Shown in pieces: positions 1 to 61,224 of a stretch of DNA of 64,000 nucleotides (position 1 is its first letter; each line of letters begins with the position of its first letter). The position numbers and the translations under genes are program-made. The stretch comes from an uncultured Lentisphaerales bacterium. Lineage in GTDB: Bacteria; Verrucomicrobiota; Lentisphaeria; JABSQK01; UBA12247. The notes under the pieces were generated by a model. The model did no database searches, had not been told where the DNA came from, and worked only from the letters and a program-made list of their open reading frames with translations. The stretch lies in NCBI GenBank assembly GCA_943788985.1, contig CALSSJ010000010.1, forward strand, positions 64,001 to 128,000, read 5' to 3'.

Positions 1-1
1 T

Positions 2-561: not shown

Positions 562-1437
562 GTGAAAACATCCTTGCTCCCCCCGACCATGTTGCAGCGT
601 CTGGAACGCATGCGCCTCGTGAGTGCGCGGCGCAATACCAGCCGAGTGCGGGGCGAGCACCTGACAGGAAGAAGCGGCAGCAGCAACGAGTTTTCAGACT
701 ATCGCAATTACGTCGCCGGGGATGATACGCGCTTCGTCGACTGGAACGCATTTGCCCGCCTGCGCCGCCCATACATGAAGCTCTACCGCGAAGAAGACGA
801 GATGAGCGTGGTGCTTCTGATCGACGCCTCCAAATCCATGGCCGAGCACGATAAATTCACCCGCGCTCAACAGCTGGCGTTGGCCTTTGCCATCATGGCC
901 CTGTATGGCGGCGAACGTCTCAGCGCGTATGCCATCACCGGCAGTGGTGTCGCCCACTGGAAACCAGCGCGCGGCCGCGGCCAAATTGCGAAGTTCGCAC
1001 ATTTTTTAGAGACTCTCAATTCCGACGGGGAGGCGAGCATTGAAGCCTGCGCCGAGACCGCCATGCGCTATCACAGCGGGCGGGGGCTGGTCATCGTGCT
1101 CTCAGACTTCCTCACCCAGGGCGACCTCAAGAAGATGTTCAATCGCTTGTTCAGTCAGGGCCTCGAGATTATGGCCACCCAGATTCTCAGTGGGGTCGAG
1201 CTCAACCCAGAGTTGACCGGTGACGCGCGCCTGGTTGATTGCGAGACCAGCGAGGTGCTCGATGTCTCGGCGAACTCCTACCTCATGCAGCTCTACCATG
1301 AACACCTCAGCGATCTCCGAGAATTACTGGGCTCGCTCGCCAAATCACGGGGCGGGCGATATCTCAGCTTCTGCGCAGATGACCGCATTGAGGAGATGTT
1401 ATTCGGCCAGGCTCTTCGCGCCGGGTGGCTGAAATGA
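562..1437 (+). CDS. DUF58 family protein (MoxR/VWA-associated)
   Basis: Motifs GSSNEFSDYRNYVAGDDTRFVDWN, LLIDASKSM and VIVLSDFL. Confidence 0.92.
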   Translation: MKTSLLPPTMLQRLERMRLVSARRNTSRVRGEHLTGRSGSSNEFSDYRNYVAGDDTRFVDWNAFARLRRPYMKLYREEDEMSVVLLIDASKSMAEHDKFTRAQQLALAFAIMALYGGERLSAYAITGSGVAHWKPARGRGQIAKFAHFLETLNSDGEASIEACAETAMRYHSGRGLVIVLSDFLTQGDLKKMFNRLFSQGLEIMATQILSGVELNPELTGDARLVDCETSEVLDVSANSYLMQLYHEHLSDLRELLGSLAKSRGGRYLSFCADDRIEEMLFGQALRAGWLK

Positions 1438-3305
1438 AGCTAGGCTTTCATGCCCCCGCTCTCGCTTGGCTGGCCCTCCTGGCCCTTCCGCTCATCGTTG
1501 CCTATTTCCTCAAGCTGCGCCGGGCGAACTGCGCCGTCTCCTCGCTGGCATTGTGGCAGCGTGTCCTCGAGGACAAACGCGTCAATTCCCCCTTTCAGCG
1601 CTTCCGCCGGCACCTCCTGTTATTCATCCAACTGCTCGTCCTAGCCCTACTGGTCTTGGCCGCTATGCAGCCTCTCTGGGGAGGAGCTAGCGGCGGCGGG
1701 GAGCGCGTCCCGATCATCGTCGATTGCTCCGCCAGCATGGCCGCCACCACTCCGGAAGGCGGAACCCAGTTGGAGGCCGCAGTCAAGGAAGCGCGAAGCC
1801 TGATTGATTCGCTCAGCAAGAATCAGCAAGCAGCCGTGCTGGCCATGGCAGATTATCCGCGTAAGCTGGTGGATTTCACCACCGACCGCAGGCTGTTGCA
1901 TCAGGCACTGGATTCGCTCGAGACCGTAGACGTTCCAGCAGACATCTCCGCAGCCCTGGGGCTTGGCCAAGCCCTTAGCCAGAGCCACCCTTTCGAGCAA
2001 ATGCACCTGTTCACCGACGGCAACATTGACGCCCAGGCTAAGCTCAAGCTATCCTTTAACGTTCAGTTTCACCGGCTCTCGCCAGCCGAGAATAACATTG
2101 GCATCAGTGGGCTCAACGCGCGCCGCAGCCCATCCGGGGCCTGGGACCTTCTCGTGCAAGTCGATGGCAGCGGCTCCGGCACCGGAGACGTCGCCCTAAA
2201 GATCGGTGACGAAATCATTGCTCAGGGCAGAGTCGCCGTCATCGATGGCGCGGGCGATCCGCTCCTTTTCAGCGTTTCGCCCGAGCAACACAGCGTAATC
2301 GAGGTCCAGCTCAAACTCAGCCAACCCGACTCACTGGCGGCAGACAATACCGCCTATATCTCACTCGGTGTGCCCCGTGACATCACAGTCAGGGTCACCG
2401 ACCCCAGCCCATTCATCGAGCATGCCCTGTCCGTACAGGACGGCCTCCTGGTACTCGGCACAGAGTCCGAGACCAAGTTTGTCGACGTTGCCATTGCCAG
2501 CACGCCCGAAGGCCAGCAGAAAGCCGCCGTAGTGCTTGTCACCGCCGGCACCATTCCCGAAGACCTTCAGGATCTACTAACCCAACAAGACAAACAGACA
2601 GAGATCATCGACTGGCTGCGAGAAGATCCTCTGCTGTGTAACGTACCGCTCGCCGAAGTCGGGTTCGCCCAGCGAGTGGCTTGGAAGGTAGTCGAAGGCG
2701 CGTCGCAACACCAACAGCGCGCCCTGCTGGAATCCCGCGGCTACCAGATTGTAGCCTCCGGCGAAACCGGCCCTCTCATTCTCCGCTGGGGCTCCACGAG
2801 TCAGCCCGTGTACCACCTGCTATTCCACCTCAAAGACTCCGAGTTACCCATGCGCATCGGCTTTCCGGTCATGCTCACCAACCTCACCGCCATCGGTCGC
2901 AAACTAGCTGGTCTGTCAATCGTCGCCGCGACCGGCACCGGTGTACTCGCTCCCATTCACACCACCGGCGAGACCACCATCACGGTCCAAACACCAAGCG
3001 GCCTGGCGCAGCAGCTCATCAGCGACAGCGAAGGCCGGGCGGCGGGCGTGCGCGCCACCTCCGTTGGCCTCTACCCGTGGATGTCCGACAGCGACTCCGG
3101 CATCGCCACTGCCAGCCTCCTGTCCCCAACCGAGAGCCAGCTCCTCACCATCGACGAGATCAACTTCCAAGAAGACCTCCGCGTCACCACCAGCAAGGCA
3201 GGTTGGGAAGCCCAGCGCCCGCTCTGGACCTGGTTTGCGATCATTGCACTTCTCGTCCTCTTTTGGGAGTGGTGGTACTTTCAGCGCGGCGCTCGTGGCA
3301 CCTGA
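1434..3305 (+). CDS. BatA N-terminal / VWA domain membrane protein
   Basis: N-terminal LLALPLIVAYFLKLRR...VSSLALW, MIDAS-like DCSASM and FTDG, C-terminal TM LFWEWW. Overlaps the DUF58 stop (ATGA). Confidence 0.88.
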   Translation: MKLGFHAPALAWLALLALPLIVAYFLKLRRANCAVSSLALWQRVLEDKRVNSPFQRFRRHLLLFIQLLVLALLVLAAMQPLWGGASGGGERVPIIVDCSASMAATTPEGGTQLEAAVKEARSLIDSLSKNQQAAVLAMADYPRKLVDFTTDRRLLHQALDSLETVDVPADISAALGLGQALSQSHPFEQMHLFTDGNIDAQAKLKLSFNVQFHRLSPAENNIGISGLNARRSPSGAWDLLVQVDGSGSGTGDVALKIGDEIIAQGRVAVIDGAGDPLLFSVSPEQHSVIEVQLKLSQPDSLAADNTAYISLGVPRDITVRVTDPSPFIEHALSVQDGLLVLGTESETKFVDVAIASTPEGQQKAAVVLVTAGTIPEDLQDLLTQQDKQTEIIDWLREDPLLCNVPLAEVGFAQRVAWKVVEGASQHQQRALLESRGYQIVASGETGPLILRWGSTSQPVYHLLFHLKDSELPMRIGFPVMLTNLTAIGRKLAGLSIVAATGTGVLAPIHTTGETTITVQTPSGLAQQLISDSEGRAAGVRATSVGLYPWMSDSDSGIATASLLSPTESQLLTIDEINFQEDLRVTTSKAGWEAQRPLWTWFAIIALLVLFWEWWYFQRGARGT

Positions 3306-4338
3306 GCCCACACCTACCTTTGCGGAGTTCGCAATCTTCCGCGTCCCCCTGGTCCGAAAGGGTACCTGGCAGACCGCAGGCGGTCGCCAAGCCGACGCCA
3401 CCACGCTCATTCTCCGCGCCACCCTGACCACGGGCGAGGCCCTCTGCAGCGAGTCCATCCTGCTTCCCGGCCACGTTGCGGAGTCCGCAGCCTCAGCCTG
3501 GGCCGAGCTGCAGCGCGTCGCTCCCCTGATGCTTGCGGCACTGCCTGGCACCGCTCCGGCAACCACCTCTACCGCCGTTGCCGGCCTGTTCGACCAGATC
3601 GCCTGGGAGTGCCTGCGCAGGCTGCCGGCTCCTGCTCGAGTTCCGATCGCCGGCACCGTCGCCGCAGCGGACCTCCAGCAGGCAATTGCGGAGTCCGCAA
3701 CCCTCGTCGAACAGGGCTGCACCACGCTCAAGGTCAAGATCACGCCGGCCACAGCCGAATCCCTAATCGAAGCCTTGCAAGGCAGCTTCCCACAAGTGAG
3801 CATCGCCGTCGATGCCAATGGCTCCTTCAACGAAGCACAGCTGCCGCAACTAGGCGCCTGGGATCGCTACGATCTCGCCTTTCTCGAGGACCCGTTCCCG
3901 GCGGCTGCGCTCGCGCTCTCGGCTCGACTGCAACAGCGGCTGCGCACGCCCATTTGCCTTGACCTTGGCATTATCGACTCTGCAGCTGCGGAGTCCGCAA
4001 TCCGCGCCCGGGCCGGTCGTCTTCTTAACCTAAAGGTCAGCCGTCTCGGCGGCTTCACTCCGGCTCACGAGATTGCCAGCTTGGCGGCCGAAGCCGGGAT
4101 CGCCTGTCGTATCGGCAGCCTGCTCGAAAGCGCCGTCGGTACCGCAGCCCACGCTCGCTTCGGCTCTCTGCCCATCTTCACCTTGCCAGCGGGCCTCGTG
4201 CCCCCAGCCAGGCTCTACACCACCCCTGGCCTGAGTGAGCTCGCTTGCACCCGTGGTGCGCTTCCTCCATCCCCTGCAGCCCCCACGCTTGAGCAACTCC
4301 TCGCAGCAGCCGATGCCAGCGCACGCTTTGGTTCGTAG
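3295..4338 (+). CDS. Enolase-superfamily enzyme (o-succinylbenzoate synthase / N-acylamino acid racemase-like)
   Basis: KxK (LKVKI), metal ligands in VDANG, LEDPF and ICLD, plus NLKVSRLGG and LLESAVG. GTG start at 3295 inferred from overlap with the upstream stop. Confidence 0.8.
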   Translation: MAPEPTPTFAEFAIFRVPLVRKGTWQTAGGRQADATTLILRATLTTGEALCSESILLPGHVAESAASAWAELQRVAPLMLAALPGTAPATTSTAVAGLFDQIAWECLRRLPAPARVPIAGTVAAADLQQAIAESATLVEQGCTTLKVKITPATAESLIEALQGSFPQVSIAVDANGSFNEAQLPQLGAWDRYDLAFLEDPFPAAALALSARLQQRLRTPICLDLGIIDSAAAESAIRARAGRLLNLKVSRLGGFTPAHEIASLAAEAGIACRIGSLLESAVGTAAHARFGSLPIFTLPAGLVPPARLYTTPGLSELACTRGALPPSPAAPTLEQLLAAADASARFGS

Positions 4339-4340
4339 TC

Positions 4341-6122: not shown

Positions 6123-6164
6123 TCTAGGCAACCCACTTCCCCGATTAGGTCATGGAGGGGAAAT

Positions 6165-6872
6165 CTACCACTTCGATGCGCTGCATTCTGTATTGGAAGG
6201 TGGGCCGATTGCCGCGCGAGCAGAAGAGTGCTCTGGTGGCGCCGTCAGAAACACGACGCTGTCGCTGATCAACTCCACCTCCAGGCCGAAGCGCTCGCCG
6301 ATCCAGGCAAAGGTCTCAGGGCAGAAGAAGCAAATGTGGGTGATGTCATCTTTGTAGCGCCAGCGCGAGAATGCCTCAGCATCGCGCACCATCTGCGTCA
6401 TCACGGCAAGGATGCCACCCGGGCGAAGCAGTCCCCGTAGGCGCTCAAGCTCCGCGCCTGGCCGCTGCAGGTGCTCGAATACCTCGGTCGCAGTAATCGC
6501 ATCATAGCTTCGCGTATACACCGCCTGATCCGGCGCGTAGAATGGATCAAACAGGGCAACTGAATGGCCAGCTTCTTCGAGCATCACCGAAAGTGTCGGC
6601 CCCGGGCCAGAACCAAAATCCAGGACCTCGCTGCCTGCGCTCAGCCGGGCCAGGAGCGGAGTTGCGACGCGGGCCAGAAACCTCCGGTAGCCGGGATCAT
6701 CCGGTGAGTTGTGGTGCAGGTCATACTCAGCCTGCTCCCGCTCTGCGGTCGGCCAAAATTGTGGAGGCACAAAAACCAGACGGCACTGCTCACAGCGCTG
6801 ATAACTGCGCCTCTGGTCCCGTGCGAACTCCGCGGAGTTGCGAACTCCGCAAAGCGGGCAGCTGTCACTCAC
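6165..6872 (-). CDS. Class I SAM-dependent methyltransferase with N-terminal zinc-binding motif
   Basis: CPLC...CEQCRLVF, VLDFGSGPGP, YDAITATEVFEHL and DITHICFF. Confidence 0.9.
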   Translation of the reverse strand: MSDSCPLCGVRNSAEFARDQRRSYQRCEQCRLVFVPPQFWPTAEREQAEYDLHHNSPDDPGYRRFLARVATPLLARLSAGSEVLDFGSGPGPTLSVMLEEAGHSVALFDPFYAPDQAVYTRSYDAITATEVFEHLQRPGAELERLRGLLRPGGILAVMTQMVRDAEAFSRWRYKDDITHICFFCPETFAWIGERFGLEVELISDSVVFLTAPPEHSSARAAIGPPSNTECSASKW

Positions 6873-8484
6873 CGCTGATAGGCTCGGGCAGTTCAGGCCA
6901 GGCGACCGATAGCTGCGACAGCAAGTCACGCGCGATCGCAGCGTAGTGATGCCGGACTGACGGCAACGGCAGCGGGTTCGCCTCACATGCAGCGGCCAAC
7001 AATTCGCAGTCCACTCCCCACTCGGTTGCGAAGATCGCAAAGCGATGCACGACGGTCGGAAAGGTCTCGCTTACGGAGCGTAGAAATGCGGCCGCCTCGA
7101 GCGCAGCCCCAGTTGCGGACTTCGCACGCACCAGCATTGCGGCGAAGCAGCGGGTGACCGGTGCCAGGGTCTCACACAGGTAGTCTTGCGCAAGCACCGC
7201 AGCGACCACCTCCTCCAGCGAGTTCAACAGATCCTGAACGGTCAGGTTCCCCTGAATCGTCCGCCAGTGCGCAGATTCGCAGTGCCTCGCCTGCTCCGGC
7301 CACAACAGCAAGCGCATCCAGGTGAGAGCCCCCGACAGTGCGGCCTCATCGGCTCTATGACGAAACGGCAGGCTGTGGGCCCAGGAGCCGGCTCTTACAC
7401 GGTCGGTGATCTGCCGACCCCATTCCAGCGCAGCTTCGCGGTCACGGGCAGAAAGGGCGCTTTGGAGTCCGGCAAGCAGCGCTGCTACCGGACCCCGTTC
7501 ATCCACTGCCTGCGCGCTCAGGCGCTCGGCAAGGCGGGCCCAGGCTGCGCCTTCTTTCAGCTCTCCCAAGGTGACCAGCAACTCAGCAAAACGCACCGCG
7601 CTACCGGAACAATCATCCAGGCTGTGACTGCGAAGGGTGCGATCGAAACGGCCATGGTAATGATCCAAGGTCATCTCATTGTGGTAGACACGGCTCATGC
7701 CAGTAAGCGAGACATCTCCCAACAGCGCCAGATCACTCGATTTCGTAAAACACTCCAGAGCCTGCTGATAAAGTTGTTCGATCTCAGGATCGCTCCGGTG
7801 GACGCGCCGCGTCACCTTTCCCGTAGTTTCCAGCATATACCGCCCCACCACCCTGGCGGCGAATGACTGGTCTGGCTCATCAAGCAGCTTGTCCAGCGCC
7901 CAGCAATAGTCCAAAGATAAGCGTACCCCTGGCAGCAGGCCTCCTGTGCCCACGAGCGCGGCTGGAACCAAGGTGCGCTGCCAACGATCCCAACTGCGGG
8001 CTGCCTGCCGCGGAGCTTGCGGTCCAGACATCTTGGCGGCTACCGAGAAGGCTCTTCCAAAGGAGCCGCCGGTAACGGCGGGAAGTGGAGGAACCACTTG
8101 CCGCGCGCGAAGCATTTCGTAGGTAAAGGCACGCCCACTCCGAACCCGGCGCAAGGGCGTTGCGGACTTCGCAACCGTGGGCCCGAGGAAGGCCAAAGCT
8201 TCCGGCAACAGGTTTGCCTTCAAGTCGTGATGGATGCGCAGCCCGACCTGCAAACAATGGTCCTGGGCTTTCTCAGGGCAGGCGATGCCCAGCGAGGTCG
8301 GCAGGCACCACCCGTCTGAAGCTGAGCCGGCGAGCATAAAGGACCAGAAGCCCCACTGTTGCGGCATCGCGCGGGTGGCAAAGTTGTGCCTCCAGACAGC
8401 GATCTGGAAGAGACTACGCAGGGGGCGCGAGATCTCAGGATGCGCCAGAACCGCGCCGGTTAGGTCCTCATCGGGAATCAGCAT
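6865..8484 (-). CDS. Hypothetical protein (helical C-terminal half)
   Basis: Long ORF (6865..8682) overlapping the methyltransferase start. True start uncertain; ATG 8484 chosen. Confidence 0.6.
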   Translation of the reverse strand: MLIPDEDLTGAVLAHPEISRPLRSLFQIAVWRHNFATRAMPQQWGFWSFMLAGSASDGWCLPTSLGIACPEKAQDHCLQVGLRIHHDLKANLLPEALAFLGPTVAKSATPLRRVRSGRAFTYEMLRARQVVPPLPAVTGGSFGRAFSVAAKMSGPQAPRQAARSWDRWQRTLVPAALVGTGGLLPGVRLSLDYCWALDKLLDEPDQSFAARVVGRYMLETTGKVTRRVHRSDPEIEQLYQQALECFTKSSDLALLGDVSLTGMSRVYHNEMTLDHYHGRFDRTLRSHSLDDCSGSAVRFAELLVTLGELKEGAAWARLAERLSAQAVDERGPVAALLAGLQSALSARDREAALEWGRQITDRVRAGSWAHSLPFRHRADEAALSGALTWMRLLLWPEQARHCESAHWRTIQGNLTVQDLLNSLEEVVAAVLAQDYLCETLAPVTRCFAAMLVRAKSATGAALEAAAFLRSVSETFPTVVHRFAIFATEWGVDCELLAAACEANPLPLPSVRHHYAAIARDLLSQLSVAWPELPEPISGE

Positions 8485-8870: not shown

Positions 8871-8886
8871 AGATGCTGTTTGCTGC

Positions 8887-11227: not shown

Positions 11228-12067
11228 ATGGTGAAGACGTGTTTAATTCTGAGTCTGCTGATTGCTCCGCTGACCGGGTTCGGCGACATAAGTGGTCTCC
11301 TAGCAGACTTGCGCTCGAACGAGCCGGCCAAAACTCGCGTGGCTCTGCTGAAACTCAAGCGACTTTCGGTGGTGGCTGAGAGCCGCAAGGAAGTGTCCGC
11401 AGTATTGGTGCGCCTCCTAACGGAAGGCGATCCTATGATCCAACGCGGCGCAGCGGATGCCCTCGGTGCTTGGCAAACCGCCGCCGCCGTCACACCGCTC
11501 TGCGAATTTGCGAAGTCCGCAAAGACGCATGCCCGCGGGGCCGCACTCTCAGCGCTTGCCAGGAACGGGACGGAGCTCGCGTTGGAATGCTTGGTGACCG
11601 AGCTGAAAGCGTCGTGCGATTCCCATGCAATCCAAGCGCTACACCAGCTATCACCAGAGCAGCAAAGCGCCGTTGTTGAGCAGCTCATACCAGTCCTGGA
11701 TGCAGCGGCACAGTCCCGCCTGACTAGGGCGCTCGACAGAGGAAAGCGCACCGCGAGCGCGCAAGTCACGATTCGGACGAAGCCGGACCTGGCAGAATTA
11801 CGGGCGCTGGCTGAACAGATTGACCTCGACCCGCTTGCGGTGTTGCATGCCTTGCGGGCCGCGGGACTGGCAGGGGAAGCGGAGGCAATTCGTTTGCTCC
11901 AAGAGGGGCACTACGACATTGCCTGCCAGGCCCTTGCGGACATCGGCACGGCCGCTGCACTTCCACATCTCGCTACCCTCGCCAAAAGTGACAAGGCAGT
12001 GGTGCGCCGCATGGCCCAAACTGCTACGGCCGGCATTCAGAAACGGGCCGCTGCCAGCAACGATTAA
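11228..12067 (+). CDS. Secreted HEAT-repeat protein
   Basis: Signal peptide; repeats QRGAADALG, ARGAALSALA and ACQALADIG. Confidence 0.75.
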   Translation: MVKTCLILSLLIAPLTGFGDISGLLADLRSNEPAKTRVALLKLKRLSVVAESRKEVSAVLVRLLTEGDPMIQRGAADALGAWQTAAAVTPLCEFAKSAKTHARGAALSALARNGTELALECLVTELKASCDSHAIQALHQLSPEQQSAVVEQLIPVLDAAAQSRLTRALDRGKRTASAQVTIRTKPDLAELRALAEQIDLDPLAVLHALRAAGLAGEAEAIRLLQEGHYDIACQALADIGTAAALPHLATLAKSDKAVVRRMAQTATAGIQKRAAASND

Positions 12068-12777: not shown

Positions 12778-15700
12778 ATGGAAATGCCTCAAGTCTCGCT
12801 GCCTGAACAGCTGGAGCTGTACCGCGTGGCCCGGCGCCGCCGGGACCTAGTGCAACAGGCGGCGCGCTTGTTGCTGATGGCAGGCAGTGGTTTGCTCCTC
12901 TTCTGCGCCTTCGACTACTGGCTCCAACCGAGTTGGGTGGTGCGCTTCGCCTTGGCTGCGGTCTGGTACACCGCAGTCGGCATCAAGGCCGTCCGGCTCT
13001 TGCGGCGCTATGCGATACGCGCGTCGGACCTTGACATGGCCTGGGAGCTTGAAGCACGATTACCGCTGGGCGAGTGCCTCATTTCCGCGGTCGAGTTCTA
13101 TCAGTCACCACAGCTGGGCACCTCGCCGGAGATGCTGGATTGGACGCAGCTGGACGCGCAGGTAGAGCTGAGCCAAGCCACCCCCGAAGAACTCTTTCCA
13201 GTGCAACGGGCCTGGCCGGTCTGTGGCGGGATCCTCATCGCGATCTTGTTGATTGGCTGCTTGTTGCTGCCGGATGGCATCGGCCGCTCAGCCCGCCGCC
13301 TGCTGGTACCTACGCCCCATGATGCCACGGCCGGTAGCTTCAGCCTGGGCATCATTTCTCCCGGAACCGGCAATGTGCTAGAGGGGAAAACCGTAGCCGT
13401 ACGAATGCACTGCGAGGAATCGTCGCTGACGAACGTCTACCTCGTCGCCGACAATGAGTATGCCCAACACCGGATCCGAGCCGAGCTTGAGCCCACCACG
13501 GGGCACTATCTGGCAGAACTGCGCGCAGTGCGAGAAGACACGCTGTATTGGGCAGCTGCCGGGCGCGTCCGTTCGCGCGCTTACCAGCTAACTGTCCTGG
13601 CAAAGCCACGCCTGCGCGCGCTCAACTATCGCATTGTGCCGCCGGACTATCTCGACGCCGCGATCGTCGAAGGCGAGGATCTGAATGGCCAGATCGAGGG
13701 CCTGATCGGGGCTACCGTGGAGCTGAACATCGAGCTATCCTCGCCCATCACCTGGCTGCAAATCAAGCGGGGCACCGAGACCATCCGGGCCATCATAGAC
13801 GGATCGCGCGCCTCGCTGCGCTTCCACTTACGTCGCACCGAGCACTTCACGATTGAGTATGCGGACGACTCCAGCGGCCATGCCGGCCAGTTTAGTGGGC
13901 TGATTCGCGGGGTGGAGGACGAGCCACCATGGGTACAGTTTCTGACCCCGGCGGGAGACATTTATTGCGAACCGGGCGACACGGTGCCCCTTTCCTGGCG
14001 CGACTGGGACGATCATGGCCTAGAATCCGTGGCCTTGCAGATCAGCAAGAACGGCGAGCCGCTTCCGGACCGGGTGCAGGACTTGAGCGCCTCTACCGCG
14101 CAGCTCGAGCTCGACCGCCTTGGCGCACGGAGCGGCGACCGCATCGACCTGCGCCTGCTGGTCCGCGACAAAGCCGGCCGCCAAGCCACAAGCAAGACCC
14201 GCAGTTTGCATGTTTCGCGCGCCACCTTTCTGCGAGACCTACCGGCCTTCGAATCGCTGATGACGCAGCTTGCTAAGTCCGCAACGACTCTGCACGAGCA
14301 ACTCAAGGCGCTCAAGACCAGCACCGACTTAATGCGGTCCATGTCGGTCTCTGTGGGGGATGAAGCGCACCATCGCCACACCGCGGCCACTCTGCGCGAA
14401 AGCGTGGAGAACGAGCTGAGCACTGCGCTGGACCGAATCGCAGCAGGGAAGCGGATGCATCTTTTTCCGGGAAGCAGGCTGGGGCTCGCGCAGCTCGACG
14501 CCGCCCTGTCGGACATCTACCTCTTCAGCCTGGCTGGCAGCACGACAGCGTTGAACAGCGACCACCTACAGCAGGCGATCGACTCAGTCGCGCTGATCTC
14601 TCCGGTGCTCAGCGACCTCCGCGAACGCCTGCAGCAGCACAAGCGCCTGTGGACACGCGATACGCTCTATCGTCGCCTCCAGCAAGACCCGAGTCCGCAG
14701 CTGCTGATCCTGGCCGCAGCGGAGCTTGCCTCGAAAGCTAAGCCAGCGGAGATCATGCCGCAGCTTGCCGCGGCAATTGCGGAGTCCGCAGCAGCGCTAG
14801 CGAAGATTGGGAGCCTGTTGCGCAGCTGCGAGGCACTGGCCCAAAGCCACCCGCTCCCTGGGGCGCGCTTCAAAGCGCTCGCCAGTCCCGAACTGACCGA
14901 TGCGGAGCGGCTGCAACTTCTCGGCCAAGTGATCCGCCGGCTCAAATCACGCACCTTTCCCGACGCAGAGGAGGACACGACGCGGTACCTCGTGATTCGC
15001 GCACTTGAGGACGCGGCCAGCCACCAACGAATCGGCAGCATTGAGCTGCTCGCGCGCACCGTTCACCTGCTCCAATCGGGAATTGATGCCCACGCACTGA
15101 GGACTGATTGGGAACAACGACACCACAATCACCTAGATGAGCAACTCTATGCCCTCCAAATACTCCACCACGCCCCCCTCCAGTCGCAGCCCCTCTCAAA
15201 AGTGCCTGCGGCCGAGAGGCTCACGTCCGAGATTCGGATTGCCCTCAAGCGACGCAACCCAGAGTACAAAAAGCTTGCCCCAGCGTTTCATGCGCTGATG
15301 CGCGAGACTGAAACGGCCGTAGCTCGCGCCAGAACGCAACTAGCGCAATACTCTGAGCCTGCTTCGCAGAGCCTGCGCTTTGCAGCGGACCAATTGCTGG
15401 CGGCACTGGCTGGGCTCGAGCAGGACCGGGCGGACGTGGTCGATCTGCACGCCATCCTGCTCGCGGAAACCGTCGCCGAATTGGAACGTCTGGCGCGAGA
15501 TGAAATCCGGGCCGCCGAGGGCTCCATTCTGGCGGCAGCGGACGCCACAGTCTTGGCCCGAGTGACCGCAGGCCATGTCGAGGAACTGAGAGAGCAGGGC
15601 AACTCTGCAGACATCTTGGAAGCCGTCGCCGACGCACTAACGCAGCTTGCGGAGTTCGCAGAACTCTTTGAGGCAGCACTGGCTGGAGAGATCAAGCCTG

Positions 15701-37423: not shown

Positions 37424-40203
<2,780 letters not shown>

Positions 40204-48708: not shown

Positions 48709-50812
48709 ATGGCAAAACGATCCCGCAAAAAGACCCCTGAGACAGCAAATCTTCCGTTTGGTTTCATCTTGGCTGGGATCCTCCTCGCGACCGCCGCTGA
48801 TCTACGCGCCCGTCACCGGCTTCGACTTCGTCAACTACGACGATGACGTCTATGTGGTCGACAATCCCCACCTCCGCGATGGCCTGAGCGCCACCACCGT
48901 GCGCTGGGCCTTCACCCAGCTGCATGCCAGCAACTGGCACCCGCTCACCTGGCTGTCACACGCGCTCGACGTCCAGCTCTTCGGCATGCGTCCGGGCGCG
49001 CACCACACCGTCAGCCTGCTGCTGCATCTCGCCAATGCCGCCCTGCTTGCGCTGCTCCTGTTGCGCATGACCGGCCGCCGCGGCTGCGCCCTCGCCGTCT
49101 GTGCGCTCTTCGCCCTGCACCCGCTCCGCGTCGAATCAGTCGCTTGGATTGCCGAGCGCAAAGACGTGCTGTCCACCTTCTTCGGCCTCCTCGCCATGCT
49201 CGCCTATTGCCAGGCGTTGCGGAGTTCGCAACGCCGGCGTTGGCTCGCTGCTTCGCTGGGCTGCTTTGCCTGCAGTCTGCTGGCCAAGCCCATGTTCGTC
49301 ACCCTGCCCTGCCTGCTGCTAGTGCTCGACATCTGGCCGTTCCAGCGCAAAACCCCGTGGAGCACGCTCCTAGTCGAGAAAATCCCGTACTTCCTGCTGG
49401 CTCTCGGTTCCTGCATCGCCACCGTGATCGCCCAACGCTCCGAGGCCATCGTCTCACTCGCGCATGTCGCCCCGGCAATGCGCCTACAAACCACCCTCGT
49501 CGCCTACGCCCGCTACCTGGGGGCCAGCATCTGGCCCGGTCCGCAGGCAGCACTGTATCCCTATCCCGATCACTGGCCGCTGCTGATCCTGCTGGCCGCG
49601 TCCGCTGCCGTTGCCGGCATCACCGCCGCCGCCTGGCGCTTCCGCCAAGCCCATCCGCATGCGCTCACTGGCTGGCTTTGGTACCTCGGCACCCTCGTCC
49701 CGGTGATCGGGCTCGTGCAGGTTGGCGAGCAGGCCTACGCAAATCGCTACAGCTACCTGCCCTGCATCGGCCTCGCCATTGCCATCGTCTGGACTCTGGC
49801 AGCCCTGCTGCCACGTCGCCCCGCCATCATCATCGCCGTGCTTGCCACGGTGCTTTGCGGAGTTCGCACCGCCCAAGAACTGCCCCACTGGCGCAACTCA
49901 GAAGCCCTGTTCCGGCGCGCGCTCGCCGTCACCAAAATCAATAGCATCGCCAGCAACAACCTCGCCCACGAGCTCAACCAGCGCGGCGACTACGCCGAGG
50001 CAGCCACCCTCCTCGCCGAGGCCCTCCAGCACAAGCCCCATCACGCGCCACTACTGAACAACTATGGCTTGAGCCTCAAGGGGCTGGGCAGGCCCGCAGA
50101 AGCCCTCCAAGCCTTCCAAACCGCCTTGACCAAGCGGCCCCGATTCGGCGACGCCGCAAACAACATCGGCGACATGCTCTCGCGGGCCGACAGGCACGAG
50201 GAAGCACTCCGCTTCTTCCGTGATGCCGAAGCCTTGAGCCCGTACGACGCCAGCCCGCCCTACAATCGTGCCAACACCCTGCGCAAACTGAAACGGTTCG
50301 ACGAAGCAATCGCCGCCTATCGCATTGCCCTGGCGCGAGATCCGAAATACACCAAGGCCTGGAACAATCTCGCCATTGTCCTCGCCCAGAGCGGCGACCA
50401 GAGCGCCGCCGCCGAAGCGTTTGAGCACGTCCTGCACCTCACCCCAGATGACAGCAGCGTGCGCCACAACTATTCCCTGCTGCTGGGGCAGATGAATCGC
50501 TACGACGACGCAATCGCCCAAAGTCGCCAGGCGCTACGCATCTGGCCCTCCTACCACCAAGCGATGGACCAGCTTGCCACGCTATTGCTCCGTCACCCAG
50601 ATCCGGCCAAGGCGAACCCAGCCGAGGCCGAACAGCTTGCGAACTCCGCAATCCAGCTGCACGCCAGCGACTGGCGCTATCACTTCCGGCTTGTGCGCGC
50701 CCAGCACGCGCAGGGCAAGGACAATTCCCAGGCGGTGGAGGCCGCGCTCGCCGTCGCGCCCAACCCCGCGATCCGAAAACGCATTCTAGAATTTCGCCGC
50801 GCAGCCCCATGA
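48709..50812 (+). CDS. Membrane glycosyltransferase-like (TMTC/GT-C) protein with C-terminal TPR repeats; apparent frameshift near 48793
   Basis: [45 protein letters not shown], then TPRs. Confidence 0.88.
50591..50800 (+). repeat. Left copy of ~210-bp imperfect direct repeat (3' end of the TPR gene)
   Basis: Aligns with 54622..54831. Confidence 0.9.
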
Positions 50813-51658: not shown

Positions 51659-51700
51659 CGCCTGTCTCCTAGTATCACTGCTAGCCCTTGCTCCCCCACT

Positions 51701-52681: not shown

Positions 52682-52840
52682 TTTATCCTCCTTGCGGATG
52701 GTTGCGGGTTTCGCAAGCTCGTCAACGCGAGCTGTTGCGTTTCACCGGTCACTATGGGAGGGAGGCGCGTGCCAGATGGTGTCACGGTGGGAGTCGCCCT
52801 CCCCTACTTACCCGAGTCGGAGAACTCGTCCTCGGCCTTT

Positions 52841-53338
52841 TCAGTCTACTGAGGCGCGGAGGAGCGCGGTCAGAACCAAGCCGATGTCCGAGGCGTCGAG
52901 GCGGAGCGAGACGCAGAGGTCGTCTTCGGACTCACAGGCGTTGATGCGGATTGGCAATGGCGTTGAGAGAGTGGATACCTCTGCGATGCCACGGTGCGTC
53001 TCGACCATCTCGTTGCGGGATTCGCAATGAAGCAAACGGACAGCCTGGCACGTACCGGGCACAGAGATCCGGGCCAGCATCGCGTCGGTTGCGGAGATCG
53101 CACTCGCCAGAATGCACTCCTCGCGGCTGCCGTTACCGACTTGGAACGACGATGTGCCGTAGGTCATTGCTTGGATCATGGATGGTAGAGAATGGCCATC
53201 GCTCCAGGCAGCAACTCTGGCGTCTGCGGGAGCCTGGCAGAGCCGGGCGAGTGCGCGCTGGCGCGAGATTCCTTGGTGGCATCCCTGCGTATCGCTGAAA
53301 AAGTGCCAGTTGTGGAGTTCGGGAGCGTCCTTGCTCAT
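52841..53338 (-). CDS. Hypothetical protein
   Basis: ATGA-coupled to the WYL gene stop. Confidence 0.55.
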   Translation of the reverse strand: MSKDAPELHNWHFFSDTQGCHQGISRQRALARLCQAPADARVAAWSDGHSLPSMIQAMTYGTSSFQVGNGSREECILASAISATDAMLARISVPGTCQAVRLLHCESRNEMVETHRGIAEVSTLSTPLPIRINACESEDDLCVSLRLDASDIGLVLTALLRASVD

Positions 53339-54621: not shown

Positions 54622-54831
54622 CGTCACCCAGATCCAGCGAGGCGCGGCGCAGCCGAGGCCGAACAGCTTGCGAACTCCGCAATCCAGCTGCATGCCGGCG
54701 ACTGGCGCTATCATTTTCGCCTCGTGCGCGCCCAGCATGCGCTGGATAAGGACAATGCCCAGGCGTTGGCGTCCGCGCTCGCCATCGCCCCGAGCCCCGC
54801 GATCCGAAAACGCATCCACGAATTTAGCCGC
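54622..54831 (+). repeat. Right copy of ~210-bp direct repeat (orphan 3' end of the TPR gene)
   Basis: Encodes [40 protein letters not shown]...PAIRKRI versus [40 protein letters not shown]...PAIRKRI. Confidence 0.9.
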
Positions 54832-55059: not shown

Positions 55060-56373
55060 ATGCGTGGCAAGGAGTACTTTGCCGTGATGGATTGCATCTG
55101 TCACAACTTCTATTTCTCCCGGCCTTTGCGCAGCGACTGGGCACACTGGTGCTGGGAATTTGGCGAGCGCTACGCCGAGACCTTCAAACTCTCGATCGAT
55201 CGCTACGATTTCACGCCCTATGATCACCATCCGGGCGGCAAAAACCAGGACGAGATCGACGACGCGCTGCGCGAGGACCTCGCCGCCGAACGTGTCATGA
55301 CCTTGGTCATGTGCTCGGACGACGCCGGTCGCGACGAGGAGGGGGGCGAGACCTTCGCCTTCAGCGTCGCAGACCTTCGCCACAGCCACGGCTACGGGCA
55401 GATCTACCTCCAAGTTGCGAAGTCCGCATACCCAGTAGGGCAGGCCGCTCGCGACACGATCCGCGCCATCCTCGACGACCTTACCACCATGTTTCAGGTG
55501 GATTACGGCTTCGTCGACCAACTCCCCGCGAACGAACGCCCGCGCTACTACTACAGCGGCATCGGCCTGCGTTCGTTCTCCGAGAACGCCGAGCGCGACT
55601 TCCTCGAATGGGACGTGCAGGCGCCATACTTTCGCAACCTCTACCGCTCCGTCACCTGGGGCACCTGGCTGACGCCCGGACATTGGGGCGCAAGCGTTGC
55701 GCCGGATACGATCCTCGCCGACCTGTCGGCCACGGGCGCGCAGGGATTCATCCCTGGGACCTATCCCGGCGTCTTCATCGGAGCCGCCGGTGAAATTATG
55801 AGCAGTGCGGACCCCGCATTTGGCGCCTTTGGTGAGCGTCTCGCTGCCGCGCTGAAGACACTCAACATTCACAGCATGCACACCTACCAGCCGAGCGAGG
55901 ATACGCTCTTTGCGGTCGCTCCGCATCCGGTCATCGACCGCGGACAGACCGAGCCAGAACCGGCACCGGTCTTCGAGGAAGAAATGCCGATGATCCCCAG
56001 CGACGACGATGGCCCCGTCACCTCCGTGATGACGCTCGAAGCATTCTTCCATCCAGCCCAAGACGAGAGCGCGATCGGGCGCAGCCTGCTCGATCACCCG
56101 GGTCTCGAGGCCTTCGCTGACACATTTCGCGAACTCCGCAGAGACAAATCCGTGTCCGATGTCGTCATTCAAATCTCGAATGATGATCCGGACGACGAAC
56201 GCGACCTCGCAGAATGGGTCTACATCACCACCTCGCACGACCAAGACGTCCTCGAAGACAGGCTGGCAGATCTGCAGCCAGATGTCATCCACCAAGGCCT
56301 GCCGCCGGGAGCTCCAGACGGATTTCCGCCGCCACCGACGGGAATGGAGATTTTCGCGGTCTGGTGGGACTGA
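55060..56373 (+). CDS. Hypothetical acidic two-domain protein
   Basis: 437-aa ORF with typical codon bias and a Pro/Glu linker; ends in VWWD. Confidence 0.7.
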   Translation: MRGKEYFAVMDCICHNFYFSRPLRSDWAHWCWEFGERYAETFKLSIDRYDFTPYDHHPGGKNQDEIDDALREDLAAERVMTLVMCSDDAGRDEEGGETFAFSVADLRHSHGYGQIYLQVAKSAYPVGQAARDTIRAILDDLTTMFQVDYGFVDQLPANERPRYYYSGIGLRSFSENAERDFLEWDVQAPYFRNLYRSVTWGTWLTPGHWGASVAPDTILADLSATGAQGFIPGTYPGVFIGAAGEIMSSADPAFGAFGERLAAALKTLNIHSMHTYQPSEDTLFAVAPHPVIDRGQTEPEPAPVFEEEMPMIPSDDDGPVTSVMTLEAFFHPAQDESAIGRSLLDHPGLEAFADTFRELRRDKSVSDVVIQISNDDPDDERDLAEWVYITTSHDQDVLEDRLADLQPDVIHQGLPPGAPDGFPPPPTGMEIFAVWWD

Positions 56374-58238: not shown

Positions 58239-59543
58239 ATGAAGCTGGCACCTCTCCTTGCGATCTTCGCAGCAGTCTGGTGCGGTGCCCAGGCACCGGC
58301 ACCAATCCTCTCCGCCAACCCTCCCATGGAGGCGCTGAGTCTTGCGGATGCCAAGCGCGAAGCAGTCACCAACAGCCCCACGTTGGCCGCGCTAAGGGCC
58401 CGCGTATCTGCTGCCTCAGCCGTCTGGCGTCAGGCCCGTGCCAGCCAGGCTCCGACGCTCTCTGCCTCCTATGCCGCCAGCCGCTTGCAGCACCAGCCCA
58501 CAGGCGGCTTCTCGACAGGCGGGCCGGAGAGTGCCACCTCACTCGCTCTCGACCTCGAATACCTGCTCTACGACGGCGGTGCCAGAAAGCACCAAATCAG
58601 CGCGACCGAGCACGATCACCTAGCTGAAGAACTCAGCCTCCAGGAAGGGCTGCGCGGCCTGCGGTTTGCCGTCGCCCGGGCCTACCTCGGCATCCTGCTC
58701 GCGGAAGCCCGCGGCCAAGTTGCTCACGCCGAGCAGGAGATCAACGCCATCTTCCTGCGCGATGTCGAAGTGCGGGCCAAGCTCGGTGCCGCTGCCCGGA
58801 CCGACGCCCTGAACTTTCAGCTGCGGATCAACAACGCCAAGCTTCGCGTGCGCAATGCCGTCCGCGATGCCCACGTAAACCGCTTCACCCTGCTCGCGCT
58901 CATGGGCCGCGCTGGCGACAGCCACCTCGCCGTCCAGCAGGTTCCGATACAGCCGCTGAACCTCGAGCTGCCCGAGGCACGGCGCCAAGCCATGCAGCAG
59001 CGCCCTGACCTCGAGCAACTTCGTGAGCAATTGCGCGCTGCCAAGGCCCGCGTGCTCGCGGCTGGCGCCGCCTTCAAACCCACAGTCACGCTCTCCGCCC
59101 AGGCGGGCTTCAGCGGCGACCGCCTGCTGGATTTCCGTGAAGACAGCTTTGGCACCAACGCTACAGCCGCTGCCCGCTGGCAGCTGGTCGACGGCGGAGC
59201 CCGCGACGCTGGCGTCGATGCCGCCATGGCCAGCGTCGAAGCCGCAGACTCGCTGTTGACTGAACGCTGGCAAACAGTGATTCGCGAAGTCCGCCAAGCG
59301 CTTGAAGAACACCGCAGCACCATCGATAAACTCACGCTCTATCGCGAAAACGTCAGCCTCAGCCGCACTCAGGTGGGTGACACCAAGACCCGCTACAATG
59401 CCGGGGTTGAGACCCTCACCCGCGTCAACGAAGTGCTCACCGAGCTGTCTATTGCCGAGGGCAACCTCGCCGCAGGCGAGATCGCAGTCTCGCTCGCGTG
59501 GGAGAACGTGCATTACGTGCTGAACACGCCCTCCGCCGAATAG
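58239..59543 (+). CDS. TolC family outer-membrane efflux protein
   Basis: LSLADA...NSP, LLYDGGAR, VARAY, QRPDL and RYNAG. Confidence 0.88.
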   Translation: MKLAPLLAIFAAVWCGAQAPAPILSANPPMEALSLADAKREAVTNSPTLAALRARVSAASAVWRQARASQAPTLSASYAASRLQHQPTGGFSTGGPESATSLALDLEYLLYDGGARKHQISATEHDHLAEELSLQEGLRGLRFAVARAYLGILLAEARGQVAHAEQEINAIFLRDVEVRAKLGAAARTDALNFQLRINNAKLRVRNAVRDAHVNRFTLLALMGRAGDSHLAVQQVPIQPLNLELPEARRQAMQQRPDLEQLREQLRAAKARVLAAGAAFKPTVTLSAQAGFSGDRLLDFREDSFGTNATAAARWQLVDGGARDAGVDAAMASVEAADSLLTERWQTVIREVRQALEEHRSTIDKLTLYRENVSLSRTQVGDTKTRYNAGVETLTRVNEVLTELSIAEGNLAAGEIAVSLAWENVHYVLNTPSAE

Positions 59544-59557: not shown

Positions 59558-60346
59558 ATGCCCGACCAGCCCGAGCGACTATCTACGCTGCACACGCTCA
59601 GGCGCGGCGTCAGCGATTTTAAAATCGCCCACCGTCTGGTCTGGGACCAGAAAATCTGGCGCATGCTGGTAGTTCCGGGGCTACTTAGCGTCCTCTACTG
59701 GCCCGCCGCATTCTATCTGACCTACCGCGGCCTACACCTCGCCACCGACTTCTGGATTGGCCGTACCGAGTCACGCTGGCTGGTGATTACCGGCGTGATC
59801 GTCCTCGGACTGATTCTGGGTGGGTCCATGCTAGCCGGCGCCATCCTGCTGCATCGCGCCTTCATCATGACCGTCTGCGCGCCCATCTGGGGGCCCGTCT
59901 CCGAACTTGCCGAGCGTGCCCTCCTCGGCACAACCGGCCCACCGCTATCCATCCGCCAGATGGCCCGTGACATTCGCCGGGCCATCTTCGTCACCACGAT
60001 CCTGGTTGCGCTCTCCGCATTCATCTTCATCGGCTGCTGGGTGCTCACCTTTGTCCCGATCGTCCAGGTCGCCGCCATCGTCTTTCTGCCGTTTGCCCAG
60101 ATGTTCCTGGCTGGCGCTGGCTTTGTCGATCCCGTGCTCGAGCGCCGCAAGCTGTCCGTCCGCGAAACCTTTCACTACATCTGGGCGCACCGCTGGCGAA
60201 TGGTCGGCAACGGCTGTGGCTACACCTTGCTGCTGCTATTTCCGATCGTCGGCTGGTTCCTGGCCCCTGGCTACGCCGTCGTTGCCGCCACAGTCGGCGC
60301 CGTCCGCGACGAACAGCCCGGTGAAACCTTGCCCGAGCTACAGTGA
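59558..60346 (+). CDS. EI24/CysZ-like membrane protein
   Basis: AP..GPVSE..E, FVDPVLERR and LFPIVG...AVVAAT. Confidence 0.8.
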   Translation: MPDQPERLSTLHTLRRGVSDFKIAHRLVWDQKIWRMLVVPGLLSVLYWPAAFYLTYRGLHLATDFWIGRTESRWLVITGVIVLGLILGGSMLAGAILLHRAFIMTVCAPIWGPVSELAERALLGTTGPPLSIRQMARDIRRAIFVTTILVALSAFIFIGCWVLTFVPIVQVAAIVFLPFAQMFLAGAGFVDPVLERRKLSVRETFHYIWAHRWRMVGNGCGYTLLLLFPIVGWFLAPGYAVVAATVGAVRDEQPGETLPELQ

Positions 60347-61224
60347 GTGCCGCCCCGCGCATCTGGCTCTTTGGTGCCACCAGCATGGTTGGCTGGAGCG
60401 TGTACCAAGCCGACCCCACCGCGATTCGCCCCTTCTGCAACCGTCACGTAAAACATCCGAAATGCGCAGACTGGACGCGCATTCAGATCGACAGCCTGCC
60501 TCACCTCGAAGCCCTCTTTGCCACCGGCAAGCCAGACATCCTGATCCACTGCGGCGGGGTTTGCGGAGTTCGCAAATGCGAGGAAAGCATGGACTGGGCC
60601 TGGCGGGTCAATGTGCTCAGCATGGCCGCGATTCTCGTCGCCTTGCCCACCAGCGTACGCCTGGTCTACGTCTCGTCCGATCATGTCTTCGGCCACGCCG
60701 AATCCCCGTGTCTGGAGCAAACCACCCCCACGCCCATCAGCCACTATGGTCGCACCCGCGTGGCGGCCGAAGAGCTGCTGCGTGAAGCCCGGCCCGACGG
60801 CCTGATTCTCCGCGTACCGCTCGGTGTCGGCCCCTCAATCGACGGACGCACTGGGCACCTGGACTGGTTGCAATACCGACACGGCCGCGGCTTGCCGATC
60901 ACCGTGATCAAGGACGAGGTCCGCGCCGTAGTCAGCGCCCCCGCGCTCGGCCGCCGCATTCTCGACTACGCGCATTCTTCCATCACCGGTACCCGCCACA
61001 TAACCGGCCCCACCATGGATCGCGTCGAGCTGGCGCAGAAACTCTGCGAGGCAATTCCGCTTTCGGCAGAGATCAAAGTCGAGAGCCGCCACGCCCAGTG
61101 CTACCCGCACCTGGGCACCGTCCGACTGGAGACGTCCTTCACAGACGCGCTGGCCGAGCCCCTCCCGCTACCAGAGTTGCTTACTGGGAGCGCCGGTTTT
61201 AACCGGCCCCACCACGCCCGATGA
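60343..61224 (+). CDS. RmlD-like sugar-nucleotide reductase (SDR)
   Basis: FGATSMVG, YVSSDHVF and PISHYGRTR. Its stop codon lies inside the first repeat unit. Confidence 0.82.
   Translation: MSAAPRIWLFGATSMVGWSVYQADPTAIRPFCNRHVKHPKCADWTRIQIDSLPHLEALFATGKPDILIHCGGVCGVRKCEESMDWAWRVNVLSMAAILVALPTSVRLVYVSSDHVFGHAESPCLEQTTPTPISHYGRTRVAAEELLREARPDGLILRVPLGVGPSIDGRTGHLDWLQYRHGRGLPITVIKDEVRAVVSAPALGRRILDYAHSSITGTRHITGPTMDRVELAQKLCEAIPLSAEIKVESRHAQCYPHLGTVRLETSFTDALAEPLPLPELLTGSAGFNRPHHAR

Follow-up and report, generated by a model that had tools for sequence, protein, structure and literature searches.

A hyper-abundant interrupted palindrome maintained at the DNA level within genes of a Lentisphaeria bacterium and some of its relatives

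Hyper-abundant short words, such as the DNA uptake sequence (DUS) of the Neisseriaceae, the uptake signal sequence (USS) of the Pasteurellaceae, and the highly iterated palindrome (HIP1) of cyanobacteria, are among the strongest non-coding signals of bacterial genomes. DUS and USS are words of ∼10 to 13 bases that show no strand bias, differ between lineages as dialects, and are scarce in acquired islands; molecular drive is the mechanism proposed for them and, more recently, for HIP1. Sites such as parS, the Noc-binding site (NBS), the SlmA-binding site (SBS), and matS number from a few to ∼100 and are confined to, or excluded from, one chromosomal domain, and repetitive extragenic palindromes (REPs) are 20 to 40 nt long, extragenic, and spread as units. 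To our knowledge, among DUS, USS, and HIP1, only the proteobacterial words have a demonstrated function. HIP1 holds the sites of two orphan methylases. Recent reports now argue that HIP1 (GCGATCGC) acts in transformation (bioRxiv 10.1101/2024.09.10.611283; PMC13756078), tie it to the methylases DmtA and DmtC (PMC4390886; PMC13756078), and put its average abundance at more than one motif per gene in some cyanobacteria (PMC5861425). Here we describe an interrupted palindrome, TGCGRASTYCGCA, that recurs throughout a 64,000-bp stretch (the window) from the genome of an uncultured Lentisphaerales bacterium (GenBank assembly GCA_943788985.1), where a preliminary description of the sequence had drawn attention to it. 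The word behaves like HIP1, DUS, and USS yet matches none of them in all defining features.

The assembly under study (designated G000; 4.58 Mb, 48 contigs, 58.3% GC) includes the window as part of contig C10. Its completeness is 83.6% and its contamination 1.49%, and all gene absences given for G000 below are to be read under that limit. The strict word was defined as TGCGRASTYCGCA, with the spacer RASTY, and the wider motif as TGCG-N5-CGCA. Genes were called with our own procedure based on open reading frames (ORFs), which is a crude caller rather than a standard gene finder and yielded 3512 genes covering 82.7% of the genome. Genomes, families, and genera of the class carry G, f, and g numbers, respectively, which are labels of this analysis. 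The survey of the class covered 301 genomes, each at least 80% complete, and a phylum-wide sample added 201 genomes that belong to other classes; candidate readers and drivers of the word were profiled over a set of 41 genomes of the class.

The strict word matched the window exactly 30 times, in the number and at the places first described, compared to a mean of 0.02 and a maximum of 1 in 100 dinucleotide-preserving shuffles, which agrees with the earlier estimate of far less than one expected copy. Twelve further TGCG-N5-CGCA sites with other spacers were counted beside the 30 strict ones, rather than the approximately 9 near matches of the preliminary description. The whole genome contained 850 strict copies, or 0.186 per kb; 47 of the 48 contigs had at least one, and the wider motif was present on all 48. 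When the 10-mers of the genome were ranked by frequency, each of the top 30 was a piece of the word, whereas the same word read backward had 0 occurrences in G000.

The spacing between the two arms was strict. TGCG and CGCA separated by 5 bases accounted for 1749 copies, versus 142 to 205 for each spacer of 0 to 4 or 6 to 11 bases, and the strict RASTY set is thus about half of a wider family, which stands out at spacer 5 only. The next commonest spacers had A and T swapped at spacer positions 2 and 4 (for example, TGCGATCTCCGCA, with 100 copies). Single-mismatch arm variants of the strict word numbered 283 all together, compared to 850 perfect copies, and the inner G and C of the arms were the positions least tolerant of mismatch. 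The flanks lengthened the palindrome, with a preceding T in 555 and a following A in 549 of 849 copies. The spacers of the strict copies were GAGTT (424 copies), GAGTC (239), AAGTT (109), and AAGTC (78); when sites were turned so that the center read G, position 5 was G in 78% and position 9 was T in 63% of them, and the two positions varied independently (evaluated by hand from the spacer counts), which makes TGCGGAGTTCGCA the best word and T-TGCGGAGTTCGCA-A the best flanked form. The two inverted 4-base arms are strict and have their centers 9 bp apart, and the spacer is fixed in length but less so in sequence; this anatomy suggests recognition of the duplex by a two-fold symmetric, sequence-specific dimer.

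The word was maintained at the level of DNA and not of protein, as had been proposed from the window. By our gene calls, 744 of the strict copies of the genome were coding and 106 lay outside coding sequence. Coding copies occurred on either strand and in all three phases (530, 104, and 110 copies). A genome-wide count against codon-preserving nulls, suggested earlier as a way to check the proposal, rejected the null: the 744 coding copies compared to 12.6 ± 3.3 (maximum, 19; 20 shuffles) when synonymous codons were shuffled within genes with proteins unchanged, to 1.0 ± 0.8 when the order of codons was shuffled, and to 105.4 ± 4.7 (maximum, 112; 10 shuffles) in a very restrictive synonymous shuffle that also retained the preceding third base and the following first base. 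Positions at which the peptide was compatible with the motif were mostly encoded as the word (104 of 131, 109 of 139, and 530 of 851 by phase, or 62 to 79%), and the peptides CELRK, CGVRK, and LRSSQ in the proteome are therefore mostly owed to it.

The origin of individual copies was evident in the asparagine synthase gene of the window (18691-20568, + strand), which contains two strict sites in the third phase and was aligned with 19 relatives that were 41 to 58% identical. At the site at 19276..19288 (CGVRK), G000 has TAT TGC GGA GTT CGC AAA, which encodes Y-C-G-V-R-K, where motif-free genomes have Y-T/N/Q-G-I-R/K/H-K. The word was also found at the same place in the motif-bearing genome G005 of family f3, whereas G011 and G013 were one mismatch off and G002 two. 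The site at 18931..18943 (CELRK) likewise came from substitutions relative to orthologues, with H-C-E-L-R-K in G000 and Y/F-x-x-L-R-Q/E/S in the others. Neither site was accompanied by an insertion or deletion, and thus copies of the word arise by point substitution, with several non-synonymous changes that include changes to cysteine. The sole copy in the gene for HtpG (htpG, 46605-48497, - strand), at 48147..48159, encodes ADSA within the sequence P-A-D-S-A-T of a variable loop, which has 2 extra residues when compared to 12 homologues; the closest relatives of this HtpG were metagenome-assembled genomes titled Verrucomicrobia and Lentisphaeria (55 to 56% identity), and the strict word was present in 0 of 80 HtpG loci from other phyla that served as an outgroup. 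An orthologue comparison for the enolase-like gene at 3295-4338, which holds four sites, was dropped because its relatives were only 30 to 38% identical and included no true orthologues. When contigs of 4 runs from 4 studies were compared to positions 1 to 20000 of the window, 0 of the 40 differences listed out of 64 fell in the 18 strict sites, a comparison that has no power, since only ∼0.5 was expected. Some of these population contigs had joints or loose ends where the motif lies (7128 to 19274 and 16817 to 4473 are examples), probably because contigs of other loci share the word.

Within genes, sites were uniformly distributed, with 120 to 153 sites in each decile of relative position, and density climbed with third-position GC from 0.14 to 0.61 per kb. 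The 20 densest genes were annotated and were mostly housekeeping genes, including those for three Mur ligases, FdhD, an AIR-synthase-like protein, an E2 acyltransferase, aminotransferases, and a FemAB-like protein. No excess at promoters, terminators, or convergent gaps was found in the densities of the intergenic gaps of G000. Intergenic clusters were considered as autoregulated promoters and rejected, as most of them were long gaps between gene calls or frameshifted genes (for example, C12:97107-98895). Neighboring sites were clustered beyond random, with 420 distances of ≤400 bp versus 260 expected, a pattern that is easier to reconcile with accumulation driven by supply than with a requirement for evenly spaced sites. 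Abutting pairs were in excess at distances of 16 bp (9 pairs), 15 bp (4), 21 bp (5), and 24 bp (4), compared to ∼0.7 expected per distance, and the two copies of 16-bp pairs were in different reading frames.

Some parts of the genome were nearly devoid of the word. The longest motif-poor tract, C12:1-86172, had 1 site and a GC content of 54 to 57%. Its first 77 kb were annotated (49 gene calls) and encode sulfatases, alpha-L-fucosidases, GH20, GH95, and rhamnosidase enzymes, SASA esterases, phosphatases, and a DDE transposase, with all but one of the 49 genes on one strand. This tract is probably a recently acquired island for the degradation of sulfated polysaccharides. Several further stretches of 20 to 30 kb in G000 were without sites.

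The word showed no strand or domain bias. In G000, local GC skew did not predict the orientation of the center-G form (odds ratio, 0.97; P = 0.88), and this form showed a mild preference for the coding strand (odds ratio, 1.6; P = 0.005). In the near-complete genomes G028 (3 contigs, 95 sites) and G025 (2 contigs, 43 sites), sites were found all along the contigs and on both strands; contig C1 of G028 had 6 to 13 sites in each full 0.5-Mb bin (five bins) and 4 in the last 0.23 Mb. No pattern tied to strand or to the replication origin and terminus was found, the point for which a density map had been proposed as a check, and sites extended along whole chromosomes of G028 and G025. In this respect the word differs from Chi and the FtsK-orienting polar sequences (KOPS), as it had no replication-linked strand skew and its orientations were mixed along G028.

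As anticipated from the window, the word was a genome-wide signal; it was also present in relatives. Of the 301 class genomes, 42 had at least 20 copies, and these belonged to 17 of the sampled families; the reversed control word reached a maximum of 11, and none of the 201 genomes sampled elsewhere in the phylum exceeded 4 copies. Motif-bearing relatives included G145 (650 copies), G087 (557), G043 (532), G115 (470), G105 (419), and G199 (299). The distribution was patchy. All 15 genomes of family f25 carried the motif, whereas genomes of the three largest families, f6 (40 genomes), f7 (122), and f11 (49), had at most 6 copies. Sister genera could differ sharply: within f24, G145 had 650 copies (genus g73) versus 2 each in G117 and G141 (genus g64); within f29, the counts were 299 (G199) and 57 versus 3 and 1 (G187 and G197); and further within-family contrasts were found in f14 (G089 versus G055), f16 (G105 versus G095), and f9 (genus g18 versus g21). 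Spacer "dialects" also differed between lineages. The 95 sites of G028 (counted by hand) had the spacers GAGTT (18), GAGTC (25), AAGTT (18), and AAGTC (34), and among the sites listed, those of G032 and G047 were mostly GAGTC and those of G162 mostly AAGTT.

A scan of 2.9 million viral contigs for the 15-base word gave 60 matching contigs, 59 of which had a single copy, presumably by chance. The remaining viral record (L210; G502), which is 28 kb long and 51% complete by CheckV, contained 12 strict and 2 other TGCG-N5-CGCA sites. Its genes include those for Mu-type transposition proteins, a Gam-like protein, terminase, portal, protease, head proteins, and a tail fiber, and sites were also located within structural genes (portal, protease, and head). 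With 14 sites in 28 kb, this Mu-like temperate phage carries the word at host density. One ORF of L210 (15831-16379) encodes 183 amino acids, matched no PHROGs family, and has a stretch that resembles a helix-turn-helix by eye. On each side of this ORF is a pair of motif copies 18 bp apart, and the pairs encode SADSAKIADSAN and PADSAEVADSAT.

A motif with this sequence had been thought to be undescribed, and the literature searched (on the word itself, palindromes of Lentisphaerae, and uptake sequences of Verrucomicrobia) contained nothing relevant. Like HIP1, the word is a short GC-rich palindrome with GCG/CGC arms that is hyper-abundant in coding and non-coding DNA and in all frames, is maintained at the DNA level beyond codon-aware nulls, and is clade-wide with exceptions. 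However, it is an interrupted palindrome of 13 to 15 bp with a semi-degenerate 5-base spacer, whereas HIP1 is a continuous octamer of another phylum; its density is ∼0.2 to 0.4 per kb; and neither the word GCGATCGC in a cyanobacterial host nor cognate orphan methylases apply here, as no co-distributed methylase was found. The likeness to DUS and USS includes a lineage-specific word in hundreds to thousands of copies, strand neutrality, location within genes in multiple frames at a cost in amino acids, dialects, and poverty in acquired islands, but the present word is palindromic and bipartite and shows no enrichment between genes or in paired form at terminators. The inverted repeat of 13 to 16 bp is of the dimeric-reader kind seen in the sites parS, NBS, SBS, and matS, which are bound by ParB, Noc, SlmA, and MatP, respectively. 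Unlike those sites, the wider motif has 1749 sites on all contigs and lies along chromosomes, and no ParB-family gene was found in G000 or motif-bearing relatives. The word is short, highly repeated, palindromic DNA, as are REPs, bacterial interspersed mosaic elements (BIMEs), and the system formed with RAYT transposases, but it is 13 bp long, has 744 of 850 copies in coding sequence, and originates by substitution. A Y1/RAYT transposase (PF01797) was rejected as a candidate driver, being absent from the matches in G000 and in f3 genus g3 (0/4).

The reading that we favor, tentatively, is that the word tags resident DNA as a dimeric-protein site that is maintained by drive linked to recombination or uptake. 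Copies arise in place by point substitution, which is synonymous when the code allows and alters an amino acid when it does not, and are then retained. Motif-bearing DNA would be preferred in a self-reinforcing manner during exchange or recombination, either at uptake or at a post-uptake step. The expected outcome would be build-up in core genes, shortage in recently acquired islands, sharing with resident temperate phages, and lineage dialects. Drive of this kind would account for the contrast between core and island, the dialects, the phage, the clustering of sites, and the patchy loss of the word; both the dimeric reader and the link to DNA exchange are inferred. Of the four functions suggested in the preliminary description, DNA uptake and a general architectural role remain, whereas methylation-directed repair and nucleoid occlusion or a parS-like role are disfavored by the profiles of candidate genes given below.

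Several observations weigh against a tag maintained by drive. Its palindromic bipartite form is unlike that of known uptake sequences, which are non-palindromic and enriched in non-coding DNA. Strict copies were present at 0.13 to 0.15 per kb in short intergenic gaps of every type, compared to 0.196 per kb in coding sequence, which is not an obvious outcome if constraint on proteins were the only check on drive. The preferred spacer, GAGTT, is asymmetric, and mixed half-site pairs were observed 502 times versus ∼415 predicted by hand from half-site frequencies. We know of no demonstration of natural transformation in the group, for which no search was made. The gene for ComEC does not separate motif-bearing from motif-free genomes, since 39 of 41 relatives, among them motif-free ones, and 4 of the 5 genomes strongest in the motif have it; in G000, neither the Pfam model nor a tblastn search with two ComEC sequences from the class found it. 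Finally, none of the six candidates or families profiled in the 41-genome set follows the motif as a reader protein would.

The genes that flank ComEC in f3 mapped to scattered contigs of G000, a pattern that both loss of the gene and missing assembly would fit. DprA was present in G000, and ComP_DUS was matched in 0 of 41 genomes in a search that had no positive control. A second, longer ComEC-like paralogue (frames of 950 to 1270 amino acids that match the Competence profile from position 12) was seen in f3, f8, and f19 only, at G005:C166, G011:C31, G013:C375, G017:C192, G002:C43, and G087:C209; it does not follow the motif overall.

In a more specific form that we regard as possible but doubtful, the word would be the recognition sequence of a dimeric DNA receptor or of a recombination-specificity protein, conferring a preference for own DNA in a whole class (Lentisphaeria-like) of the Planctomycetes-Verrucomicrobia-Chlamydiae (PVC) group. 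If this were true, uptake-type signals would gain their first palindromic, bipartite member, one without precedent in the phylum, and the word would support the placement of HIP1 and many HIP-like words in one general class of self-DNA tags. Whatever its reader, the word is confined to one class and is strong enough to alter amino acids in housekeeping enzymes, and sister genera whose counts differ by as much as 300-fold offer natural contrasts for tracing the responsible gene by phylogenetic profiling. Practical uses include a host tag for the binning of contigs, the linking of phages to hosts (one Mu-like phage was found in this way), and the spotting of acquired islands. If the word controls the entry or recombination of DNA, its addition to constructs could aid genetics in a poorly tractable group.

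Instead of a tag, the word might be the binding site of an abundant nucleoid-associated or chromosome-organizing protein, with each site under selection for compaction, loop anchoring, or segregation. An interrupted palindrome is typical of dimeric helix-turn-helix readers, and the excess of abutting pairs, including 16-bp pairs in two frames, is suggestive of side-by-side occupancy. Sites lie along whole chromosomes, perfect copies far outnumber one-mismatch copies, and an intergenic density that is not above the coding density would fit harm near promoters. In the 41-genome set, matches to ParB (PF02195) were limited to 10 genomes, none of them motif-bearing (not in G000, 0/5 in f3, 0/1 in f8, 0/8 in f9, and 0/1 in f12), which fits an architectural site in a class largely without ParB; ParB itself was rejected as the reader. 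With chromosome-wide sites and no orientation bias, the lack of ParB in motif-bearing genomes also speaks against nucleoid occlusion or parS-like organization as first suggested. However, the spacing of sites is clustered and not regular, an 86-kb island with one site and several site-free stretches of 20 to 30 kb cause no visible harm, and a 300-fold difference between sister genera of f24 (650 versus 2) would be odd for an essential architecture. No candidate protein was found. The winged helix-turn-helix (wHTH) protein at 8887-9300, which had been named as a possible reader, was present in 24 of 41 genomes, including motif-free families f5 (5/5) and f6 (7/7), but in 0/5 genomes of motif-bearing f3, and was rejected together with ParB. 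Furthermore, we know of no nucleoid protein that needs ∼1700 exact 13-bp sites or for which proteins are rewritten, although no search was made. An architectural role is the main rival of the tag and seems somewhat unlikely, if less so than the explanations that follow.

It is improbable that the word is a functionless by-product of biased repair or gene conversion, in which a nuclease or glycosylase turns near-cognate into cognate sites in a manner like that of very short patch (VSP) repair. Such a process would be compatible with the origin of copies by substitution, including costly changes to cysteine, with the saturation of compatible positions, and with the presence of the word in a resident phage, its dialects, and its patchy distribution. 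However, unconstrained intergenic DNA is no richer in the word, and one-mismatch variants have not been swept away but are 10 to 20 times above chance (∼1.4 expected per variant, scaled from the window shuffles). As a candidate enzyme, Vsr (PF03852) failed, as it was not found in G000, f3 (0/5), f8 (0/1), or f9 genus g18 (0/3). The sole intact C5 methylase of G000, which is encoded on contig C17 and adjoins an HNH nuclease, was also rejected as a driver because it does not follow the motif, with matches in 0/5 f3 genomes and none in G028 or G034. We know of no enzyme that repairs toward a 13-bp bipartite word.

A role for the word as the target of a DNA methyltransferase or of a bipartite (Type I or IIB-like) restriction-modification system, as a mirror of HIP1, seems very improbable to us. 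The symmetric N5 form does resemble Type I and IIB sites, HIP1 is tied to DmtA and DmtC, and pieces of an HsdM-like gene are present on contig C36. Restriction sites are, however, usually avoided and not enriched, and the spacer of the word is not free, as RASTY is preferred. No match to the methylase families PF01555, PF02086, and PF07669 was found in G000, where at 83.6% completeness a missed gene is possible. The PF02384 (Type I HsdM-like) match at C36:36244-38483 consisted of six pieces in different frames, one with a TGA, and is either a pseudogene or an assembly error. A regular expression for methylase motif IV matched 37 proteins of G000, and none of the 9 that were read by eye was DNA-methylase-like. 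Taken with the 0/5 C5 methylase matches in f3 and the missing Vsr, these results disfavor the methylation-directed repair that had been put forward earlier. A signal in RNA or protein (an mRNA hairpin or selection for A-x-x-A peptides) or an assembly artifact is hardly credible, even though 71% of coding copies (530/744) are in one phase and the center-G form favors the coding strand, for copies are spread over the three phases and both strands, with 106 of them outside coding sequence, and the word is removed by protein-preserving shuffles, accounts for 79% of compatible peptides in the two minor phases, and has a spacer too strict in length for a hairpin loop, and the same window DNA is present in sequencing runs of 10 studies (labeled marine, marine plankton, or estuary metagenome).

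In the window, 29 of the 30 strict copies were in coding sequence by our gene calls. The 30th (TGCGAACTCCGCA, 6839..6851) is between gene calls but within a longer ORF (6165-7040, - strand), in agreement with the initial view that nearly all copies are coding and are read in several frames. Twenty-two copies were in the phase T GCG xAx Txx GCA (AEFA, AESA, ANSA, AKFA, AKSA, or ADSA), while LRSSQ was encoded at 3 copies (17859, 27116, and 49218) and CGVR or CELR at 4 (18931, 19276, 49856, and 60562). The first copy, TGCGAAGTTCGCA at 987..999, encodes AKFA in the coding sequence (CDS) at 562-1437 (+). The enolase-like gene (3295-4338, +) encodes AEFA at 3321..3333 (TGCGGAGTTCGCA) and AESA at 3477..3489, 3687..3699, and 3987..3999 (TGCGGAGTCCGCA in all three). 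The CDS at 6865-8631 (-) has AKSA at 7114..7126 and 8161..8173 (both TGCGGACTTCGCA) and a wider site, TGCGAAGATCGCA, at 7027..7039; AKSA is also encoded at 11509..11521 (TGCGAAGTCCGCA; CDS 11228-12067, +). Six strict copies fall in the CDS at 12778-17547 (+), encoding AESA at 14778..14790, AEFA at 15648..15660, 16296..16308, 16656..16668, and 16797..16809, and ANSA at 17463..17475. The adjacent glycosyltransferase gene (17633-18703, +) has a copy in another phase at 17859..17871 (LRSSQ) and the wider site TGCGGAGTACGCA at 18385..18397. In addition to its two strict copies, the asparagine synthase gene has the wider site TGCGGGACTCGCA at 19878..19890, and another wider site, TGCGGCATACGCA, lies at 22794..22806 in the CDS at 22759-23352.

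Further along, a radical-SAM/HemN-like gene (25856-26959, -) encodes AEFA at 26408..26420 and ANFA at 26495..26507, the CDS at 26956-27690 (-) has LRSSQ at 27116..27128 and the wider site TGCGAGGTCCGCA at 27298..27310, and a short-chain dehydrogenase gene (27701-28444, -) has AESA at 28244..28256. The wider site TGCGGAGTGCGCA (34330..34342) is in the CDS at 33930-35090, and a SNF2 helicase gene (37499-40207, +) encodes AKFA at 39031..39043. Beyond htpG in the window, a TPR gene (48758-50812, +) has strict copies at 49218..49230 (LRSSQ), 49856..49868 (CGVRT), and 50638..50650 (ANSA). Three wider sites, TGCGGGTTTCGCA (52703..52715), TGCGGGATTCGCA (53014..53026), and TGCGGAGATCGCA (53090..53102), are followed by strict copies at 54669..54681 (ANSA; small CDS 54604-54834, +) and 55416..55428 (AKSA; CDS 55060-56373, +). 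The wider sites TGCGGACCCCGCA (55806..55818), TGCGATCTTCGCA (58259..58271; CDS 58239-59543), and TGCGCTCTCCGCA (60007..60019; CDS 59558-60346) precede the last strict copy, at 60562..60574 (CGVRK; CDS 60343-61224, +).

The spread of copies over the window was uneven, with 18 strict copies in the first 20 kb and only 1 (39031) across 28257-48146. The latter region contains a plsX-fabH cluster, a fragment of a Mutator-family transposase (35932-36540), and the SNF2 helicase gene, followed by a gene for a 727-amino-acid protein that had no Pfam match. A gene for a PIN-domain protein (50964-51380) lies near one for a WYL/WCX-domain regulator (53335-54351), with small unannotated ORFs between them, and the region at 50964-54351 may be a toxin-antitoxin or defense neighborhood. 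Elsewhere in G000, two ORFs of 374 amino acids (C1:50439-51563 and C6:40588-41712) are identical but for one residue, either through recent duplication or as a repeat collapsed or split by the assembler. The small protein encoded at 8887/8974-9303 in the window had no Pfam match and was found at 50 to 60% identity in 24 of 41 genomes of the class. Directly after it, in the region at 8887-10403, is a gene for a 367-amino-acid protein with a weak match to the Tubulin/FtsZ GTPase family (E value, 1e-6, below the Pfam cut-off), and neither protein had a sequence match among solved structures. The region at 8887-10403 could encode a TubR/TubZ-like chromosomal pair in a class that is largely without ParABS.

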